This document shows positions 2,584-41,847 of a DNA stretch of 64,000 nt, one piece after another. Origin of the DNA: a virus (lineage: Duplodnaviria > Heunggongvirae > Uroviricota > Caudoviricetes). Every line of letters starts with the position of its first letter. The stretch's first letter is position 1. The notes beneath the pieces are model-generated. The model did no database searches. It was not told where the DNA came from and saw only the letters and a list, made by a program, of their open reading frames with translations. Position numbers and translations under genes: made by a program. The stretch lies in IMG/VR virus record IMGVR_UViG_3300042472_000628, positions 37,455-101,454 of that record. One strand, 5' to 3'.

Positions 2584-3873
2584 ATGAAGATTTATAATAC
2601 ATTTGAACATTTTTTAACAGAGAGTTTGCACGACAATCATGACTATACACCAATCTTAGAAGGTGGTGCAGCAGGTCATATGTCACACCCATTTGATAAT
2701 AATGAATTGACGTTTGGTGATTTCAAAGAAATGATTCAAGCCGGTCTTAGTGGATCTCTTAATTTCGAAGAAGAACCTACTGAAAAAACAGACGGTCAAA
2801 ATGTATTTGCAACCATTCAAAATGGTGAAGTAAAATTCGCAAGAAATAAAGGTGATATGAAAACGCCTATGTCTTTGTCTGATTTTAAGACAAAGTTCGA
2901 AGGACATCCTAGTAAATTAGTACAAGACACTTTTCAATTTGCAGCAGATGATTTAGCATCATCTCTTATTAAACTACCAACCAAAACTCAAGAAGAAATA
3001 TTTGCAAATGGATTAAACTTCATGAATATGGAATTAATTTATTCTCTTAATCCTAATGTTATTCATTATGATGTTGATGTTATTCAATTCCATGGTGTAA
3101 AAATAACAGACGGTGAAGGTAATATTACAGGAGAAGATAATTCAGCGGCAAAGAAAATTGCTGGTTTATTAAAAGATGTTGATGCTCATATTCAAAAGAC
3201 ATTCTCTATAATTCCACCACAAGTTATTAAGATAGCTAAAGATATTAACTTTGATGAAAATAAATCAAAGTTCATAGCTAAAGTTGATGCTCTTAGAGAC
3301 ACATTTGGTTTAACAGATGCAGATGCAGTTGCAAGATACCATGAAATGTGGTGGAGAGATCAAATTAATTCAATTTTCCCAGATGCACCACAAGATATTA
3401 AAGAAGGTTTACTATTAAGATGGGCATATGATGATAAGAAAACTCTTAACATCAGAGATCTTGAAAAAATGGGTTTATCAAAAACACAAGCAGATGCTGT
3501 AAAGAAATTTGACAAAGAAGATGTTAAAAAGAAATATAAAGAAAACATTAGACCATTCGAAGATTTATTCTTGGAACTTGGATCTATTATTTTAAAGAAC
3601 GCAAGTAACTTTGTTGCTGCAAACCCTACAGCAGAGATGCAAAGATTACACAACGAACTTAGATCAGAATCGGATAAAATTAAAGCAAACGGAGACCTTT
3701 CTCAAATTGCAAAAGTTGAAGCAGAACTAGCAAGACTAGACAGGATTGGCGGTATTGAATCAATCATACCAACAGAAGGTTTAGTATTTGTTTATAAAGG
3801 TCATACTTATAAATTAACAGGAACATTTGCTGCAGTAAATCAGCTTATGGGATTTATTAAATACGGTAGATAA
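2584..3873 (+). CDS. ATP-dependent ligase-like nucleotidyltransferase (Rnl-like fold) with CTS-like N-terminus
   Basis: Motif I TEKTDG, IIIa IQFHG, IV TEGLVF, V YKLTG. N-terminus MKIYNTFEHFLTE; EGGAAGHMSHPFD motif. Confidence 0.65.
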   Translation: MKIYNTFEHFLTESLHDNHDYTPILEGGAAGHMSHPFDNNELTFGDFKEMIQAGLSGSLNFEEEPTEKTDGQNVFATIQNGEVKFARNKGDMKTPMSLSDFKTKFEGHPSKLVQDTFQFAADDLASSLIKLPTKTQEEIFANGLNFMNMELIYSLNPNVIHYDVDVIQFHGVKITDGEGNITGEDNSAAKKIAGLLKDVDAHIQKTFSIIPPQVIKIAKDINFDENKSKFIAKVDALRDTFGLTDADAVARYHEMWWRDQINSIFPDAPQDIKEGLLLRWAYDDKKTLNIRDLEKMGLSKTQADAVKKFDKEDVKKKYKENIRPFEDLFLELGSIILKNASNFVAANPTAEMQRLHNELRSESDKIKANGDLSQIAKVEAELARLDRIGGIESIIPTEGLVFVYKGHTYKLTGTFAAVNQLMGFIKYGR

Positions 3874-5720
3874 TGGCATTACAAAACTTAAGAACATACT
3901 TTGAATCCTCTAACATTAATGACTTCTTGTCAATGATAGAGTTACCATGCGTTGTATCAGAAAAAATACAAGCATCTTCATTTCACGTTAGAAAAACCAA
4001 TACAGGATTTGAATATTTTAAAAGTGGTTCTAAATCAGCAATGGACAGAATAGACAGAACCATGGTTAAATACTATGAAAATGGTATTAATTATTTTAAA
4101 ACTATTTTACCAGAAGTTACTGAAGAAATGCCAGTAGATTGGAAATTTGGATTTGATTACATGATCGACAACAAGACTGTAGATATTGAGTATGATATTT
4201 TACCAAAAAATCACTTAATTTTAACACACATTCAAATATTAAATCCTACTGATCCAACTCAAATTAAAAAAGTAATTAGAGATCCACAGGTACTAAACAA
4301 ATGGGCTGATAAATTAGGAGTTAACAGAGCGCCAGTTATTTTTGAAGGTAAATTACAATCAAATCAAAAAGATGATCTAGTTAGACTTTTAGAAATATCA
4401 GATGCTGATTTCGCAATTAAATTTAAAGATCACTCTTTCACAAGAACAATATACAATATATTCAATAATGGACTTACAAATCCAGCATTGAACTATTCAT
4501 TAGATAATGAAATCGATGGACTTATCATTAACTTTTATGAAGGTAAAACAATTAAAAGTTTTAAATTAGAGAGATTTGATCGTAAACCACAAGAAGACAG
4601 ATCACCGTCTGATATGTACCAAATTTCAATTTTAGATTTGGTAGAGTACATTACTAACTACGATCTTGACAGTATTCAATTAACCGAAGAGTCAGCTGAC
4701 TTAAGATATATTGAATTAATCTCAGAACTATATAACGGTTACGTTTGGACAAATGCATCTAAATACATTGGTGCTAATTTTGATTCAGCAGATTTTTCAG
4801 ATAATCCTGGATTTGAACTTAATACAGATTTTATTAAAAACGAAAAAACTTTAGCACATGTGCAAAATAAGGTTTTAGCAGAATTATATAAAATTGCATT
4901 AGGAAGCTTTAGAAAGAGAAGAAATAAAGAGACAGATATTATTAACAAAGATTTGATGATTCAGATCAATGACATCGTAGACCATATAGAAACTTTAGTT
5001 ATGGCTAAAACAAATGAAAACGACGTTATGACATTCAAGTCATATCTTATTAATCAAAAACTTCAATATACAGATAGTCCAGTTTTAGAAGGACTTTCAG
5101 TTAAATATCCAGATCAAGGCAAAATGCCAGTAAATATGTTTGTTGGTAGATTCCAACCATTTACACTAGGTCATGTTAAAGTTATTGAAACTATTTATAA
5201 ACAAAATGGATTTCCAGTAGTTATATTTTTAGTTAAATCAAAAACTAAGAAAAAAGAGGATGCATTCTCAAGACCATATGACGAAGACACTCAACTTAAG
5301 ATGTTAGAAAAACTTAAAGGAAAATATCCTATTCAAGAAGTTTTTATAATTGATAGAGGTGCGATCGATTTAATGTTCAATACAATGAGACCTAAATACG
5401 AACCAGTATTATGGGGAACAGGATCAGACAGATTACAAACATATTCATATCAAGTTGATAAACCAGAATATAGAGAAGATTTAGGTTGTAGACCAGATTT
5501 CGGTTTGTTTGAAATACCAAGAACTGGCAAAAACATATCAGCAACTCAAGTTAGAGAAGCTATGTTGGCTGATGACGAGAAGACTTTTAAGAAGCTAACT
5601 CCAGCACCGATACATGATATGTACAATGAATTAAAGACAAAACTAGAAGCATCTATGGGTGTTACAGCAGAGTCTAACGAGACTACATTAACATTTGATC
5701 AGTTTATTAAGAATATATAA
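3873..5720 (+). CDS. Fusion: degenerate ligase-like N-terminal domain plus C-terminal cytidyltransferase/NMNAT-like (T/HxGH) nucleotidyltransferase
   Basis: N-terminal SEKIQAS (KxDG degenerated), IDGLII, SFKLE. C-terminal GRFQPFTLGH, GSDR, ISATQVR. TAATG stop/start overlap with the upstream gene. Confidence 0.7.
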   Translation: MALQNLRTYFESSNINDFLSMIELPCVVSEKIQASSFHVRKTNTGFEYFKSGSKSAMDRIDRTMVKYYENGINYFKTILPEVTEEMPVDWKFGFDYMIDNKTVDIEYDILPKNHLILTHIQILNPTDPTQIKKVIRDPQVLNKWADKLGVNRAPVIFEGKLQSNQKDDLVRLLEISDADFAIKFKDHSFTRTIYNIFNNGLTNPALNYSLDNEIDGLIINFYEGKTIKSFKLERFDRKPQEDRSPSDMYQISILDLVEYITNYDLDSIQLTEESADLRYIELISELYNGYVWTNASKYIGANFDSADFSDNPGFELNTDFIKNEKTLAHVQNKVLAELYKIALGSFRKRRNKETDIINKDLMIQINDIVDHIETLVMAKTNENDVMTFKSYLINQKLQYTDSPVLEGLSVKYPDQGKMPVNMFVGRFQPFTLGHVKVIETIYKQNGFPVVIFLVKSKTKKKEDAFSRPYDEDTQLKMLEKLKGKYPIQEVFIIDRGAIDLMFNTMRPKYEPVLWGTGSDRLQTYSYQVDKPEYREDLGCRPDFGLFEIPRTGKNISATQVREAMLADDEKTFKKLTPAPIHDMYNELKTKLEASMGVTAESNETTLTFDQFIKNI

Positions 5721-7309: not shown

Positions 7310-7948
7310 ATGCCAAGTAAATCAGTTGCACAACAACACTTAATGGGAATGGCTTACGCTTATAAAAAAGGTGAGTTAAAGTCAGATGAAGTAAGCGGAG
7401 AAGTTAAAGACTTGGCTGATTCAATGACTATGCAACAACTTAAAGATTTTGCAAGTACAAAACATAAAGGTTTACCCCAATATGTTGAAGAGAATATAAC
7501 AACTGCTGCAATGGCAGGTATGGGACCAGTAGTTTTACCAATGAATGGTGTTAATGGTTCTGGTGATGTACCAGCAGGAAAAGGCGATGCTAAGAAAGCA
7601 TATAAGAAAAAGAAAAAGAAAACAGTGGTACATTTAACATTTGAAAATTTTGTAAACGAAGCATATGAGAACGACGACATCAATATGATGTATGGTTATT
7701 TTGGAAGCATGGAACAAGAATACGATGAAGCTAAAGCACATAAAGAGTTTGATCAAGCAGTAAAAGATTTAATTAAAGAATTTAAGTTTAAAGAACAAGA
7801 CGCACTGAACTTATTAAATTCAAAGGTAGGAAGGCAAGCAGCAGATGCTATCATTGCCAGAGAATGTGAAGAAGGTGCAGTTAACGGAGTTTATTGGTAT
7901 TTAGGTAAAGATAAAAATAAAGTTTTATCATACACTAAGAAATTGTAA
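7310..7948 (+). CDS. DUF3008-like N-terminal domain protein with internal CTS-like motif
   Basis: MPSKSVAQQHLMGMAYAYKKGE...MTMQQLKDFASTKHKGLP resembles DUF3008; internal HLTFENFVNEAY. Confidence 0.6.
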   Translation: MPSKSVAQQHLMGMAYAYKKGELKSDEVSGEVKDLADSMTMQQLKDFASTKHKGLPQYVEENITTAAMAGMGPVVLPMNGVNGSGDVPAGKGDAKKAYKKKKKKTVVHLTFENFVNEAYENDDINMMYGYFGSMEQEYDEAKAHKEFDQAVKDLIKEFKFKEQDALNLLNSKVGRQAADAIIARECEEGAVNGVYWYLGKDKNKVLSYTKKL

Positions 7949-8096: not shown

Positions 8097-8363
8097 ATGA
8101 CAGTTACAACTTATACAAACTTTGACAGACATGAAAACATGGATTCTGAAACTAGAACAGAAATCATGTCAATCATTAGAGAACTTATGGACTTTGATAA
8201 TACTCGTCGCTTAGAAAATTTTATGTATGGTTTATTTGATGGGTATTTATATGCAGATCTTCAAATTGAAGCTTTACAGTTACCTACAGAAATTGCCTCA
8301 AGAATTATGAGAGTATTCGATATCTGTAACCGTTACCCAAAATTACAAACTCAAAACAATTAA
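8097..8363 (+). CDS. Hypothetical early protein (88 aa)
   Basis: ORF directly after the early-type promoter, with an A-rich leader. Confidence 0.7.
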   Translation: MTVTTYTNFDRHENMDSETRTEIMSIIRELMDFDNTRRLENFMYGLFDGYLYADLQIEALQLPTEIASRIMRVFDICNRYPKLQTQNN

Positions 8364-8366
8364 TAT

Positions 8367-8660
8367 ATGAACACTTTAGAACAAATTGAAAAAGTAAAAG
8401 AATTAGTGTCAAACTATTTTGACAAAAATGCAGAATGGTGTGGAGTAGCATCTCTATCAGAATCTGAAGCACAACATGTGATCCAAATCGGTGCATCAAT
8501 TTTATGTACTAAATGGGAAGTTGGTTATGCTGGTGGAGGTTTTGTACAATCATTCGTTAAAAATGATTTAATGGGTGCTTTAGGTAGTGCAGACTCAACA
8601 AGTCTTAAAGGATTTAAATTCTTTGCAGCCTTAATGTATAATATTGGAAAACCTTTCTAA
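8367..8660 (+). CDS. Hypothetical early protein (97 aa)
   Basis: ORF tightly packed behind the previous gene; GGFVQSFVKNDLMGALGSAD motif. Confidence 0.7.
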   Translation: MNTLEQIEKVKELVSNYFDKNAEWCGVASLSESEAQHVIQIGASILCTKWEVGYAGGGFVQSFVKNDLMGALGSADSTSLKGFKFFAALMYNIGKPF

Positions 8661-8724: not shown

Positions 8725-10152
8725 ATGAAATTAGTAGACGCTTTAAGACAAGAAGACATTTTAACAGAAAATGGCATGGCCACAAACTCAAGCTCATTAA
8801 ATGCTTGCGTAGATTTATTCTTTAACATTGGTGCAATGAGAGGCCAAGACAAACAACGTTTGATCGCAACCTTTTCGAAAGCGTTCAATGAAGATCCTAG
8901 ACGTGCAATGAAATTGTTATTTTGGGCACGTGATGTTAGAGGTGGTGCAGGTGAACGTCAAGTTTTCAAAGACATCTTAGTTTACTTAGCTGAGAATCAT
9001 GACTTGGTTTTAAAACCAAACTTACACTTGATTTCAGAATATGGTCGTTGGGATGACTTGTTAGTTCTTACAGGAACTTATTTAGAGAAAGAAGCATTTA
9101 CATTAATCTCAGATGCAATCATTGCTGAGAATGGTTTATGTGCTAAATGGATGCCACGTAAAGGTGCAGTAGCTGAAAAGTTACGTAAATTTACAGGTAT
9201 GTCACCAAAACAATATCGTAAATCATTAGTTGGTTTGACAAGTGTTGTTGAAACTAAAATGTGTGCTAAAGATTGGGACTCTATCGAGTTTGGTAAATTG
9301 CCATCAGTAGCATCAGCACGATACCAAAAAGCATTTGGTAAAAATGCATACGAAAGTTATTCAGCTTACATCGCTTCTTTAGTGAAAGGTGAAGCTAAGA
9401 TCAATGCAGGTGCAGTATATCCATATGATGTGATTAAGTCATTGACTCATGGAAATGCAACAGTTGCTAACGAGCAATGGAAAGCTTTACCAAACTACAT
9501 GGAAGGTGCAAACGATATGATTTTACCAGTTGTGGATGTTTCGGGTTCAATGTCAAGTCCAGCAAGTAAAACTGTAACTTGTATGGATGTTGCAATCTCT
9601 TTAGGTCTTTATATTTCTGAAAGAAATGAAGGTGCTTTTAAAGATGCATTCGTTACATTCTCAGATAATCCAAAATTACAAGTAGTTTCTGGATCTTTAG
9701 CTGACAGATATGCACAAATGTCGACAGCTGATTGGGGAATGAGTACAAACTTAGAAGCTACATTTAAATTGATTTTAGATCAAGCTACTAAGCACAAATT
9801 ATCTCAAGACGAAATGCCAAATAAAATCTTAATCTTATCAGATATGGAATTTAATTCGGCAACTGGTTCTAGAGGTTGGGGAAGTAATAGAACTGAAGCT
9901 TGGAATCCAACTGCTCAACAAATGATTGAGAACATGTACGATGTAGCAGGTTACACAATGCCTCAAATCGTTTATTGGAACATTCAATCCAGAAATGGTG
10001 GTGTACCAGTAGCATTTGACAAAGCGGGAACTGCATTGGTATCAGGATTCTCGCCAGCAATTATGACAAGTTTGCTTGGAGGTGATATTGAATCACCACA
10101 ACAAATAATGGATAAAACAATCTTGAGCGAGAGATACGCTCCAATTGTTTAG
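8725..10152 (+). CDS. Ro60/TROVE-related RNA-binding protein with C-terminal vWA domain (DUF2828-like)
   Basis: TENG, LFWARDVRGGAGER, YGRWDDL, AKWMPR, LPSVA and KINAGAVYPY; vWA MIDAS DVSGSM, ILSDMEF, YWN, LVSGFSP. Confidence 0.85.
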   Translation: MKLVDALRQEDILTENGMATNSSSLNACVDLFFNIGAMRGQDKQRLIATFSKAFNEDPRRAMKLLFWARDVRGGAGERQVFKDILVYLAENHDLVLKPNLHLISEYGRWDDLLVLTGTYLEKEAFTLISDAIIAENGLCAKWMPRKGAVAEKLRKFTGMSPKQYRKSLVGLTSVVETKMCAKDWDSIEFGKLPSVASARYQKAFGKNAYESYSAYIASLVKGEAKINAGAVYPYDVIKSLTHGNATVANEQWKALPNYMEGANDMILPVVDVSGSMSSPASKTVTCMDVAISLGLYISERNEGAFKDAFVTFSDNPKLQVVSGSLADRYAQMSTADWGMSTNLEATFKLILDQATKHKLSQDEMPNKILILSDMEFNSATGSRGWGSNRTEAWNPTAQQMIENMYDVAGYTMPQIVYWNIQSRNGGVPVAFDKAGTALVSGFSPAIMTSLLGGDIESPQQIMDKTILSERYAPIV

Positions 10153-10601: not shown

Positions 10602-11336
10602 ATGCCACAAATATTTAAAGTAGGAGGTTGTATTAGAGATAAGTTTCTCGGAGTCGACTCAAAGGACATAGATTTCACATTCGTTTTAGACGATTTAAGT
10701 GGAACAGTAGAAGATGGTTTTCAAATCATGACGGATTGGATGACTGAAAGAGGATTTGAAATATTCTTAAGTACTCCAGATTGTTTTACGATTAGAGCTA
10801 AGTTTCCAAAAGATCACCAATTCACTGGACTTGTTGCAGATTTTGTAATGGCAAGAAAAGAAGTCGGTTACACTGAAGGAACTCGTCGACCAATCTTAGA
10901 ACTTGGAACTCTCGAAGATGATTTACTTCGTCGAGATTTCACAGTCAATGCTTTAGCAGAAGATATTGATGGAAACCTTATTGATCTTTTTGGTGGAGTA
11001 GATGACCTAAAAGCCGGTATTTTAAGAACTCCATTGGATCCACGTATCACTATGATGGACGATCCATTGAGAATCTTAAGAGCTCTTAGATTTACAATCA
11101 CTAAAGATTTGACAATGTCTATGGATATTTGGGAAGCTATTCAGCAACCAGGAATCTTAAAGAAATTAGAATTGACAGTAAGTAGCCAAAGAATCAGAGA
11201 CGAGATTGAAAAAATGATGAAATTTAATACCGTTAGAAGTTTTAGACTTTTAATGGATGTAGATGCTATCATTCCAGGATTTTTAGAATTAATCTTCAAA
11301 GATGGAATGTGGTTAATGCCAACCTTTAAACAATAA
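10602..11336 (+). CDS. cca: Class II tRNA nucleotidyltransferase (CCA-adding / poly(A) polymerase family), compact
   Basis: VGGCIRD, DIDF, RRDFTVNAL, DDPLRILRALRF; only 244 aa. Confidence 0.85.
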   Translation: MPQIFKVGGCIRDKFLGVDSKDIDFTFVLDDLSGTVEDGFQIMTDWMTERGFEIFLSTPDCFTIRAKFPKDHQFTGLVADFVMARKEVGYTEGTRRPILELGTLEDDLLRRDFTVNALAEDIDGNLIDLFGGVDDLKAGILRTPLDPRITMMDDPLRILRALRFTITKDLTMSMDIWEAIQQPGILKKLELTVSSQRIRDEIEKMMKFNTVRSFRLLMDVDAIIPGFLELIFKDGMWLMPTFKQ

Positions 11337-37863: not shown

Positions 37864-38205
37864 ATGAAAATTATTAAAACATTTGAAGACTTCTTAACTG
37901 AAGACGCTTTAAGAGCTGGAGAAGATTCACAAGTAGTTATCGATGATATCGATTTAGATTCAGGTTCTACTATAAAAGCAGCTGAAATTTTAGGAGCTAT
38001 TTCTGCCTCTATCACAGATGAAGAGTTTAAACAGTACTTCTATGATGAATACGGAGAGAATGCTTTCGGTGAAGGTGAGATTGATCAGTTAGTTAAAATA
38101 TATAACGATAAAGCTGCAGAAGACTTAGAAGCTGAGAAAGAAAAAGAAAAAGAAGCTGAAGGAGAAGAAGGCGGAGACGCTGAAGATCCACTTGCCGGGT
38201 TATAA
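37864..38205 (+). CDS. Small acidic prohead core protein (gp67/68 position) with CTS-like N-terminus
   Basis: MKIIKTFEDFLTE; lies between portal and protease. Confidence 0.55.
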   Translation: MKIIKTFEDFLTEDALRAGEDSQVVIDDIDLDSGSTIKAAEILGAISASITDEEFKQYFYDEYGENAFGEGEIDQLVKIYNDKAAEDLEAEKEKEKEAEGEEGGDAEDPLAGL

Positions 38206-40365: not shown

Positions 40366-41847
40366 ATGGCAAATTTATTAAACGAAGCTGAGATCAAGAA
40401 TACATGGGCACCGATTATCTCGGAAGCTACAGGTATCAACGAATCTAGCAAATTAGCGTGGATGTCGACTTACTGTCATAACCACAAATTGTATGAAGAC
40501 GCAAACATTATGTCTTTATCTAACAACCCTGGCCCAATGAACTTAACAGGTATGGGTGCAGTATCTTTTCCTTCAGCGATTGGACAAGGTGCAAATGTAG
40601 GAACTAACGGTTCAGGTGACAAATCACCAACGTTATTGCCTTTAGCAATGCAAGTTGCTGCTCAAACTATCGGTTTAGACTTAGTACCAGTAGTACCAAT
40701 GGCAGGTCCAATGGGATTATTGTCTTACTTAGACTTTACTTACGAAGGTGGTACAATCGAATTAGGTAAAACTGCTCCAACTTACATTAAAGTAGGTGTA
40801 GCTTCAGCTGAAGTTATCGCAGACGTTATCGCAGAGATCAAAGCATTAGCTTTAGATACTATTCCTGCAGCTGCAGGTTACGGTGCTTACGAATTAGTAG
40901 GAACTTCTAGAATTGATGGTAAAATGATTTTCAAAGTAGGAACAGTTGTAGCTGCAAACGTAGAAGCTGACGTTACTTTAGCATTAGCTTCATTAACTGA
41001 AGATGCTACTGCAACAGGTGTTACTTTAGTTGCTGCATTAGAAGATCATATTCCTGCATTCTCTGGAGCTGCTGCTAACGGTAGACCAATGTCTAGAGAA
41101 GTTGGTGAAAGAACTGCTGATAAAGTAATGGGTCTTTCTTTATTCTCTAAATCAGTTGCTGCTGAAACTTTCCAAGTTGCTGCTGCAGTTACTAGAGAAC
41201 AAGTACAAGATTTAAAACAATTCGGTGTAGATGCTGTTGCTCAAGTAGAAGCAGTTTTAACTAACGAATTAACTCAATCTATCAACAATCACATCTTATA
41301 CAAAATGAGAGAGATTGCTGAAACAGGTTTAGGTCTTCCTAGTAACACATTAACTTTAGATTACACTCAAGGTGGAAATACTTATGGTGATGTTAACAGA
41401 AGAATCTTAACTAACATTCTTGCTGCTGCGAACTTAATCGCAAACAGAGGAAGAAGAGGTGCTGGTAACTTCGCAGTTGTAGGAGCAAAAGTTGCTTCAG
41501 CTTTACAATCAATTGCAGGTTTCGTACCAAATCCAATGGCTAACACATTCAACCAAGTTGCAGGTGCTATCTACCCATTAGGATCTGTTGCAGGTGTTAA
41601 CATCTATACTGACCCTAATTTAGAATGGGAAGGTGCTACACAACAAGTATTAGTTGGTAGAAAAGGTGATGGTAACGGTGCTGGATTAGTATTCATGCCT
41701 TACTTAATGGCTGAATCAGTTCAAATGATTGCAGAAGGAACAATGGCTCCAAAAGTAGCTGTTAAATCTAGATATGCATTAGTTGAAGCTGGATTCCACC
41801 CAGGTACACAATACCAAAAATTCGAAGTTGCTGGTTTACAATTGTAA
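40366..41847 (+). CDS. gp23: Major capsid protein
   Basis: WAPII, VVPMAGPMG, QDLK, NELTQSIN, GRRGAGNFAV, PY, P...VKSRYAL. Confidence 0.95.
   Translation: MANLLNEAEIKNTWAPIISEATGINESSKLAWMSTYCHNHKLYEDANIMSLSNNPGPMNLTGMGAVSFPSAIGQGANVGTNGSGDKSPTLLPLAMQVAAQTIGLDLVPVVPMAGPMGLLSYLDFTYEGGTIELGKTAPTYIKVGVASAEVIADVIAEIKALALDTIPAAAGYGAYELVGTSRIDGKMIFKVGTVVAANVEADVTLALASLTEDATATGVTLVAALEDHIPAFSGAAANGRPMSREVGERTADKVMGLSLFSKSVAAETFQVAAAVTREQVQDLKQFGVDAVAQVEAVLTNELTQSINNHILYKMREIAETGLGLPSNTLTLDYTQGGNTYGDVNRRILTNILAAANLIANRGRRGAGNFAVVGAKVASALQSIAGFVPNPMANTFNQVAGAIYPLGSVAGVNIYTDPNLEWEGATQQVLVGRKGDGNGAGLVFMPYLMAESVQMIAEGTMAPKVAVKSRYALVEAGFHPGTQYQKFEVAGLQL

Follow-up and report, generated by a model that had tools for sequence, protein, structure and literature searches.

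What would a T4-like phage do with two overlapping genes, one for a ligase-fold enzyme with intact catalytic motifs and the other for a degenerate ligase fold joined to a second type of nucleotidyltransferase? The question is raised by a 64,000-nucleotide stretch of IMG/VR virus record IMGVR_UViG_3300042472_000628 (the window), which corresponds to bases 37455-101454 of a 165-kb record with an estimated completeness of 61%. The two open reading frames (ORFs), P0001 (429 amino acids, window positions 2584-3873) and P0002 (615 amino acids, 3873-5720), lie on the + strand, and the stop codon of the first and the start codon of the second share one base within the sequence TAATG, just as an initial annotation of the region had stated. 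The pair can be read as capsid-addressed enzymes that act on broken RNA ends, a reading to which we give an even chance. All of its parts belong to known superfamilies; the novelty is one of variation, in the ligase clade, its union with a HIGH-type nucleotidyltransferase, and the probable delivery of both by the capsid.

P0001 had been credited with an intact KxDG and with motifs IV and V of the covalent nucleotidyltransferases, and these assignments hold up well. Motif I (EKTDGQN, 2782-2802, + strand) contains K68, the presumed AMP-accepting lysine, together with D70 and G71, and motifs IV and V (EGLVFVYKGHTYKLTG, 3775-3822, + strand) contain E398, G399 and K410. In an alignment of 60 relatives that are 34-62% identical to P0001, no variation is seen at G27, G31, H32, H35, K68, D70, G71, R87, E150, G399 and K410, and conservation at H170 and E398 is at least 90%; K68, D70 and G71 are also invariant in 42 long fusion proteins that are described below. 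Residues, among them E150 as the acidic residue of motif III, were assigned to motifs from their position in the predicted strands rather than by residue-level superposition. A conserved element, GGxxGHxxHP[FY]D, is located upstream of motif I. No match to P0001 was found among the Pfam, PHROG and NCBIfam models, and searches against PDB chains with the single sequence and with a profile gave chance hits only. Relatives at E <= 1e-3 number 1810 among 1.8 billion cluster representatives and come mostly from aquatic phages. A tblastn search located P0001-like genes only in Microcystis phage Mel-JY01, which has the module in its fused form and on which no paper was found, and in two huge uncultured phages, and a blastn search of the region against a phage collection found nothing.

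The predicted structure identifies the fold. The AlphaFold (AF2) model of P0001 has a predicted local distance difference test score (pLDDT) of 85 and a predicted template modelling score of 0.83, with residues 1-30 disordered. Its top PDB matches in Foldseek are all RNA ligases, at weak E values of 1e-3 to 1e-1, and the top 40 entries in VIA-align are ATP-dependent ligases throughout. The VIA-align comparison with Naegleria NgrRnl gives Z 9.4 (root-mean-square deviation 3.8 over 187 residues), and the values for Trl1-LIG, T4 Rnl1, REL1 and T4 Rnl2 are 8.7, 8.6, 8.2 and 7.9, respectively. The matched portions amount to about 170-200 residues that are scattered over model residues 22-429; between the strands that carry motifs IIIa and IV the model has an insertion of about 175 mostly helical residues (residues ~220-395; 3241-3768, + strand). 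Structural neighbours of the model in the ESM-atlas are viral clusters, many of them fused to CTP_transf_like, and include clusters labelled RNA_ligase and RNA_lig_T4_1. Because the structural matches and the conserved motifs point the same way, P0001 is predicted to be a ligase-fold enzyme whose active site, judged from its motifs, is intact. It lies outside every named ligase family, since it has neither a family hidden Markov model (HMM) match nor a family-specific appended domain that would place it in Rnl1-Rnl6.

A ligase fold had also been proposed for the N-terminal part of P0002, and here too structure prediction agrees. The P0002 model (pLDDT 80) consists of a ligase-type domain (residues ~20-235), a helical domain (~247-377), a low-confidence linker (380-407) and a Rossmann-like domain (418-595). 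The ligase-type and helical parts (3930-5003, + strand) match full-length T4 Rnl2 in Foldseek with an E value of 7.7e-8 and a probability of 1.0, and match Trl1-LIG at 8e-7. The motif I of this domain, EKIQAS, is degenerate: SEKIQASS occupies residues 29-36, so that KIQA stands in place of KxDG as originally reported. In close relatives K31, D95, K228 and K231 are invariant and D215 is nearly so, which suggested a divergent but live domain. This possibility was rejected once homologues of 26-33% identity from huge uncultured phages (LR756500-504 and LR745206) were aligned. In these proteins motif I reads ENLDGS, EDIQGS, EDVQGS or ENIQGS, with N or D at the K31 position, and the lysines of motif V are not retained. 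Because the motif I lysine and the motif V lysines are both lost in these distant homologues, the domain is to be classed, on its sequence, as a pseudo-ligase, the ligase nucleophile having been lost across the domain family as a whole. A profile of this domain hit none of 150 ligase-module representatives, and the pseudo-ligase is therefore specific to this sub-lineage and its huge-phage relatives.

One description in the initial annotation had to be dropped, namely that the two ligase-type domains look paralogous. Since no sequence similarity between them is detectable (BLASTP E values of at least 2; hhalign probability 0.3%), the resemblance consists of the fold and short motifs only. A complex prediction with P0002 residues 1-602 and P0001 residues 32-429 returned "no answer" with a score of 0.00, and weighs neither for nor against binding of the two proteins.

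The C-terminal part of P0002 (5124-5657, + strand) is a HIGH-type nucleotidyltransferase domain with the NMNAT/NadD/PPAT fold, and on this point the motifs, Pfam, NCBIfam and structure bear out the Rossmann-like (T/H)xGH enzyme that had been recognized earlier. The motifs are GRFQPFTLGH (residues 425-434, with TLGH at 431-434), GSDR (517-520) and ISATQVR (555-561). Pfam CTP_transf_like (PF01467) matches residues 422-562 with an E value of 1.6e-7 (a score of 32 bits, above the cut-off of 21), and the VIA-align Z values to NadD, NMNAT and PPAT are 13-14. The only NCBIfam model to pass is a generic one, TIGR00125, with 38 bits against a cut-off of 27.7.

The two genes travel together. A stand-alone P0001-type gene is present in 37 IMG/VR loci at 56-75% identity, and a P0002-type gene follows directly downstream in 31 of these and a split variant in one; the remaining five loci end 0-2.5 kb past the ligase gene and hence are not assessable for the partner. 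The same pair, at 32-45% identity and preceded by genes for a helicase and an S-adenosylmethionine (SAM) methyltransferase, occurs in the 462-kb phage LR756500, which shares further synteny with this phage and so counts as a distant relative, not as an independent occurrence. A different arrangement is seen in IMGVR_UViG_3300021364_001157, where the pseudo-ligase part is contained in a 1034-amino-acid protein and the nucleotidyltransferase in a separate protein of 371 amino acids.

Outside this lineage the association takes the form of fusion. At 35-45% identity, the P0001 module mostly occurs as the C-terminal part of proteins of 500-1985 residues. A domain like the C-terminal part of P0002 is found in 41 of the 150 ligase-module representatives, PF01467 in 22 of 42 sampled long fusion proteins, and a HIGH motif (PGGFKPxTGAH or GRFQPxxxHH) in 33 of 42 fused IMG/VR ORFs, in all but one of the 33 near the N-terminus. 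An hhalign comparison of the ligase profile with a cyanophage "cytitidyltransferase" found nothing. Because the ligase module is repeatedly fused with this type of nucleotidyltransferase, the two form an old functional unit, which in this phage is split, permuted and supplemented with a pseudo-ligase. The 42 long fusions also include PolyA_pol plus RNAbd (five proteins), a Zeta/AAA_33 P-loop kinase (five), an HD domain (two), a 2H phosphoesterase (one) and an ADP-ribosyltransferase (one). With the exception of the ADP-ribosyltransferase, these are standard tools for healing or rebuilding RNA ends.

These associations narrow the range of chemistries that had at first been offered for the pair. 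RNA repair is favoured because the ligase module recurs in fusion with PNK-like (polynucleotide kinase-like) kinase, CCA-adding, HD and 2H domains, because the structural matches prefer RNA ligases over DNA ligases, and because two genes with RNA-related products lie 3-5 kb downstream of the pair. One encodes a Ro60/TROVE-like RNA-binding protein (8725-10152, + strand; Pfam DUF2828 and DUF7788; phrog_850, "RNA-binding protein") and the other a tRNA nucleotidyltransferase (10602-11336, + strand; Pfam PolyA_pol; phrog_24229, "tRNA nucleotidyltransferase"). A role in NAD+ metabolism has become less likely, for reasons given below.

The proposal that the enzymes are packaged begins with the N-terminus of P0001, MKIYNTFEHFLTE (2584-2622, + strand), which ends in an L-x-E protease-type site and resembles the start of the T4 internal proteins IPII and IPIII. 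Both of the latter begin MKTYQEFIAE, an experimentally defined T4 capsid targeting sequence (CTS) that is cut by gp21 after the glutamate (PMC9026906). The leader is kept in all 36 of the 36 stand-alone P0001-type proteins of the IMG/VR loci, and likewise in close homologues. Leaders of this kind are also found on the flanking genes P0003 and P0004 (see below), and all three end in L/I-x-E. In a scan of the + strand ORFs of the 165-kb record (46,862 residues), the strict pattern F-x-x-F-[ILV]-x-E has four matches, three of them at residues 7-13 of a protein, and a looser pattern has 28, of which nine fall in the first 12 residues, although about 4% of the sequence is N-terminal. Removal of the tags would be expected of a gp21-type prohead maturation protease that the phage encodes (38262-40244, + strand; phrog_207, E 3.3e-45). 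A 113-amino-acid ORF between the portal and protease genes (37864-38205, + strand) starts with MKIIKTFEDFLTE, nearly the same tag as that of P0001; this gap corresponds to the slot of T4 gp67/gp68.

CTS-like tags had been ascribed to both genes of the pair. The claim stands for P0001, whose N-terminal tag is non-random by pattern count; P0002 has no N-terminal leader, and its tag-like motifs are internal and C-terminal instead. The C-terminal motif, LTFDQFIKNI (5685-5717, + strand), has nearly invariant residues T607, F608 and F611; no other C-terminus in the 165-kb record matches the loose pattern, and variants of the motif at this end also occur. The internal motif, MTFKSYLINQ (residues 386-395), lies in the linker (5010-5123, + strand; pLDDT below 50 for residues 380-407) and is followed by the conserved sequence SPVLE/G (402-407), a possible prohead-protease site whose general form is SP[VI][LM]E-G. 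Conserved linker residues are M386, F388, Y391, L392, Q395, S402, P403 and E406, and split forms of P0002 (421-426 amino acids) that have no nucleotidyltransferase stop just past the internal motif. We infer that P0002 would be addressed to the head through its internal and C-terminal motifs or through its partner. There is some precedent for enzymes of this type in virions: a cytidylyltransferase was detected in the virion proteome of cyanophage S-CREM2, and according to the authors of that study such enzymes as well as kinases are frequent in cyanophage virions, with the caution that carry-over is possible (PMC10665884).

Taken together, the favoured reading would run as follows. The tags would bring the proteins into the prohead, where the gp21-type protease would trim them, possibly with an additional cut in the linker of P0002. 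The pair would then be ejected into the cell along with the phage DNA. Once there, P0001 would self-adenylylate at K68 and seal RNA breaks with 5'-P and 3'-OH ends, the likeliest targets being tRNAs that the host's anticodon nucleases have cleaved. Binding of the RNA, or a scaffold role, would fall to the pseudo-ligase domain, and the HIGH domain would perform a second nucleotidyl transfer of the same pathway, for which an RNA end phosphate and a dinucleotide cofactor are candidates. A bolder version of this proposal is that the union of HIGH and KxDG enzymes constitutes an undescribed chemistry of RNA repair or end modification, delivered ready-made by the capsids of T4-like marine phages, so as to forestall tRNA-cleaving defences before phage gene expression. 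An obligatory step before or after sealing could be, for instance, that the HIGH domain nucleotidylylates a terminal phosphate of the RNA or makes an NAD-type cap. We regard this version as a long shot.

Several observations weigh against capsid-delivered RNA repair. The structural Z of P0001 is moderate (about 9), with only about 190 of its 429 residues aligned. The weak point of the reading is the HIGH nucleotidyltransferase, as we know of no RNA-repair pathway that needs one. Neither a PNK-type kinase (PF13671) nor the canonical Rnl2 family (PF09414) was found in the 165-kb record, which is incomplete, so a full heal-and-seal set in this phage would be conjecture. With respect to packaging, the HIGH motif stands at the very start of many fused relatives, which lack a leader, and packaging is therefore not a trait shared by the entire family. 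In addition, the T4 late promoter motif TATAAATA shows no enrichment in the window, with 10 matches where 12.75 are expected, and is absent on the + strand in and upstream of the cluster.

These last two points lend themselves to a different interpretation, in which the proteins are not packaged at all: the shared leader would have another role, for instance in translation or cytoplasmic assembly, and the enzymes would act in the cell after their synthesis there. The lack of an N-terminal tag on P0002 fits with this. Such an interpretation must nonetheless account for a motif that is almost restricted to N-termini in the pattern counts given above, that terminates in L/I-x-E, the form cleaved by gp21-type proteases, that recurs in near-identical form on the gene in the prohead-core slot, and that resembles the experimentally defined T4 CTS. 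We consider it unlikely, although it deserves to be taken seriously.

A second alternative starts from the HIGH domain, and would have the pair serve NAD+ or dinucleotide metabolism. Here the domain would be a true NMNAT that is active at the start of infection, supplying ADP-ribosyltransferases or countering NAD+-depleting defences, and the ligase folds would be accessory. In fold and in its GRFQPFxxGH and ISxTxxR motifs the domain comes closest to archaeal NMNAT, NadM and NadD, and the P0002 family profile reaches archaeal NMNAT (E value 4.8e-4) and NadM by sequence, aligning both motifs. Some relatives join the domain to a P-loop kinase, like NadR; the ADP-ribosyltransferase domain in one fused relative would also fit, and P0002 is the sole PF01467 match in a record that also encodes a Nampt/Namat-like enzyme. 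However, every NMNAT equivalog model falls far below its cut-off (TIGR01527, 26.3 versus 181.2 bits; NF002243, 28.4 versus 127; TIGR01526, 16.4 versus 341), and the PHROG matches prefer "cytidyltransferase" families over NMNAT (1.9e-14 versus 2.8e-4). Furthermore, the Nampt/Namat-like gene is accompanied by a PRPP-synthetase-like (phosphoribosyl pyrophosphate synthetase-like) gene (both at record positions ~127-136 kb, that is, 26-34 kb past the window), and a pair of PRPP-synthetase-like and Namat-like enzymes would need no NMNAT. Plain NAD+ salvage is less likely because of the failed equivalog models and the presence of this pair, and NAD+ synthesis would leave unexplained why the domain is found most often with an intact ligase module beside RNA-end enzymes. 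The NAD+ alternative is thus improbable.

The genes just mentioned belong to a block at record positions 127000-141000 (26-40 kb past the window) that encodes PRPP-synthetase-like, NADAR, Thg1-like, YqeY, Nampt/Namat-like and calcineurin-type phosphoesterase proteins, a mixture of NAD+ rebuilding and tRNA repair functions.

The idea that P0001 acts on DNA, sealing nicks or guarding the ends of the injected genome, draws on the fold being common to DNA ligases (for example those of African swine fever virus and Prochlorococcus marinus, Z ~7), on the incoming DNA being what an injected ligase would encounter first, and on the position of the cluster after a helicase gene, but is very improbable given that RNA ligases outscore DNA ligases (Z 7.7-9.4 versus 5-7), that P0001 has no OB domain or DNA-binding domain, and that the fused partner domains are RNA-end enzymes.

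The genome in which the pair resides is that of an uncultured marine T4-like myovirus with a GC content of about 32%, as identified from genes for a tail sheath, large terminase, portal, gp21-type prohead protease and major capsid protein; a ribonucleotide reductase and an SbcC-like protein were also identified, and Thg1-like polymerase and calcineurin-type metallophosphoesterase genes are encoded elsewhere in the genome. Close relatives of P0001 and P0002 are found on metagenome contigs of up to ~260 kb, some of them from Tara Oceans samples. Upstream of the pair is P0003 (796-2559, + strand; 587 amino acids), which has the N-terminal tag MQKLKSFDQFSTE and two internal SFINE/AE sites; its residues 79-193 match phrog_1987, and no other family or fold was recognized for it. 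Downstream is P0004 (5729-7294, + strand; 521 amino acids), which starts with METEMSFNEFINE and for which no family or fold was recognized. ESM-atlas look-ups of P0003 and P0004 gave no usable lead.

Related motifs occur in several other proteins. The tagged block is followed by a DUF3008 protein (window 7310-7948) with an internal LTFENFVNE/A at residue 110, and in LR756500 the pair is likewise followed, at the corresponding position, by a DUF3008 homologue (8203-8586). The leader also begins other ORFs of the record; examples beyond the window are a 162-amino-acid ORF (record 158049-158537), which starts with MKHLKKYDQFINE, and a 343-amino-acid ORF (coordinates 78902-79933, about 14.9-15.9 kb past the window end), which starts MKLKSYEGFIA. 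The leader motif could serve to list candidate head cargo genome-wide. The major capsid protein (window 40366-41847) starts MANLLNE/AEIKNTWAPIISE/ATGINE/S, with three L/I-x-E sites in the first 26 residues, as would be expected if cleavage in this phage has gp21-type specificity.

The combination of elements at this locus was not found described in the papers searched, which include work by Iyer, Aravind and colleagues on jumbo phages, polyvalent proteins and viral NAD+ systems, nor did a further full-text search turn it up. Despite its very wide distribution, the ligase module has no family model, and no published description of it was found; it is constantly partnered by an NMNAT-like enzyme for which no known RNA-repair pathway has a use. 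Should the tags truly load the pair into the head, these would be the first RNA-repair enzymes to be virion cargo. The repertoire of injected phage proteins would then widen beyond restriction inhibitors, ADP-ribosyltransferases and RNA polymerases, and a simple sequence rule would be at hand for spotting injected enzymes in T4-like phages.

How, then, does the pair compare with known systems? The P0002 C-terminal domain shares GRFQPFxxGH, ISxTxxR and the Rossmann-like fold with archaeal NMNAT, NadM and NadR and with the cyanomyovirus "cytidyltransferase" of PHROG 395/3041. Unlike NMNAT, NadM and NadR, it has threonine in place of the first histidine (TLGH), has a pseudo-ligase as fusion partner and is encoded beside a ligase, and misses the equivalog cut-offs widely. 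The pair matches neither NARP1 (Adps/Namat) nor NARP2 (Nampt/Nmnat), as had been noted from the start, since neither gene is of the Nampt family.

The ATP-dependent RNA ligases (NgrRnl/Rnl5, Trl1-LIG, T4 Rnl1, T4 Rnl2 and trypanosome REL1) have the fold of P0001, with Z values of 9.4-7.7 over about 170-200 residues, and motifs I, III, IV and V with a lysine nucleophile. Additional domains are appended in the named families: a C-terminal helical domain in Rnl1 and Trl1, the C-domain of Rnl2 and an N-terminal domain in Rnl5. P0001, in contrast, has no sequence-level match to any ligase family, its helical part is inserted within the domain rather than appended at the N- or C-terminus, and it has the GGxxGHxxHP[FY]D element and a leader of the capsid-targeting type. 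Structural neighbours also include DUF6267 (PF19782), an uncharacterised viral family: its atlas clusters align over 322-358 residues of the P0001 model with template modelling scores of 0.62-0.67, and some of them are also fused to CTP_transf_like. Since the DUF6267 HMM fails to match this genome even at E <= 10, and P0001 is matched by no Pfam model, DUF6267 is at best a sister group.

Among multi-enzyme systems, T4 Pnkp plus Rnl1, which repair tRNA, and bacterial Pnkp1-Rnl-Hen1 both heal and seal RNA, as the pair may. Relatives of P0001 are likewise fused to PNK-like kinase and to 2H or HD phosphoesterase domains, and a small SAM-dependent methyltransferase gene that recalls Hen1 adjoins the ligase-fold genes in LR756500 (4147-4632) and LR756501 (7351-8046); no SAM methyltransferase gene lies beside the pair in this window. 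The pair itself differs in having no kinase or phosphatase, and in having a HIGH nucleotidyltransferase and a pseudo-ligase that are absent from the Pnkp/Rnl systems. The enzymes of those systems are made in the cell, not delivered by a capsid.

The closest parallel for delivery is T4 itself. IPI, IPII, IPIII and Alt have a short N-terminal leader like that of P0001, with aromatic and hydrophobic positions and an L/I-x-E end (MKTYQEFIAE versus MKIYNTFEHFLTE), and in both phages the genome also encodes a gp21-type protease. The two cases differ in that one partner here, P0002, has its motifs C-terminally and internally, and in that packaging is deduced from sequence in this phage. Alt is an ejected enzyme cargo of T4 (PMC9026906), and the cargo here would likewise be ejected enzymes. 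What would set this phage apart is the nature of that cargo: in place of a restriction inhibitor and an ADP-ribosyltransferase, a predicted pair of RNA ligase and nucleotidyltransferase.

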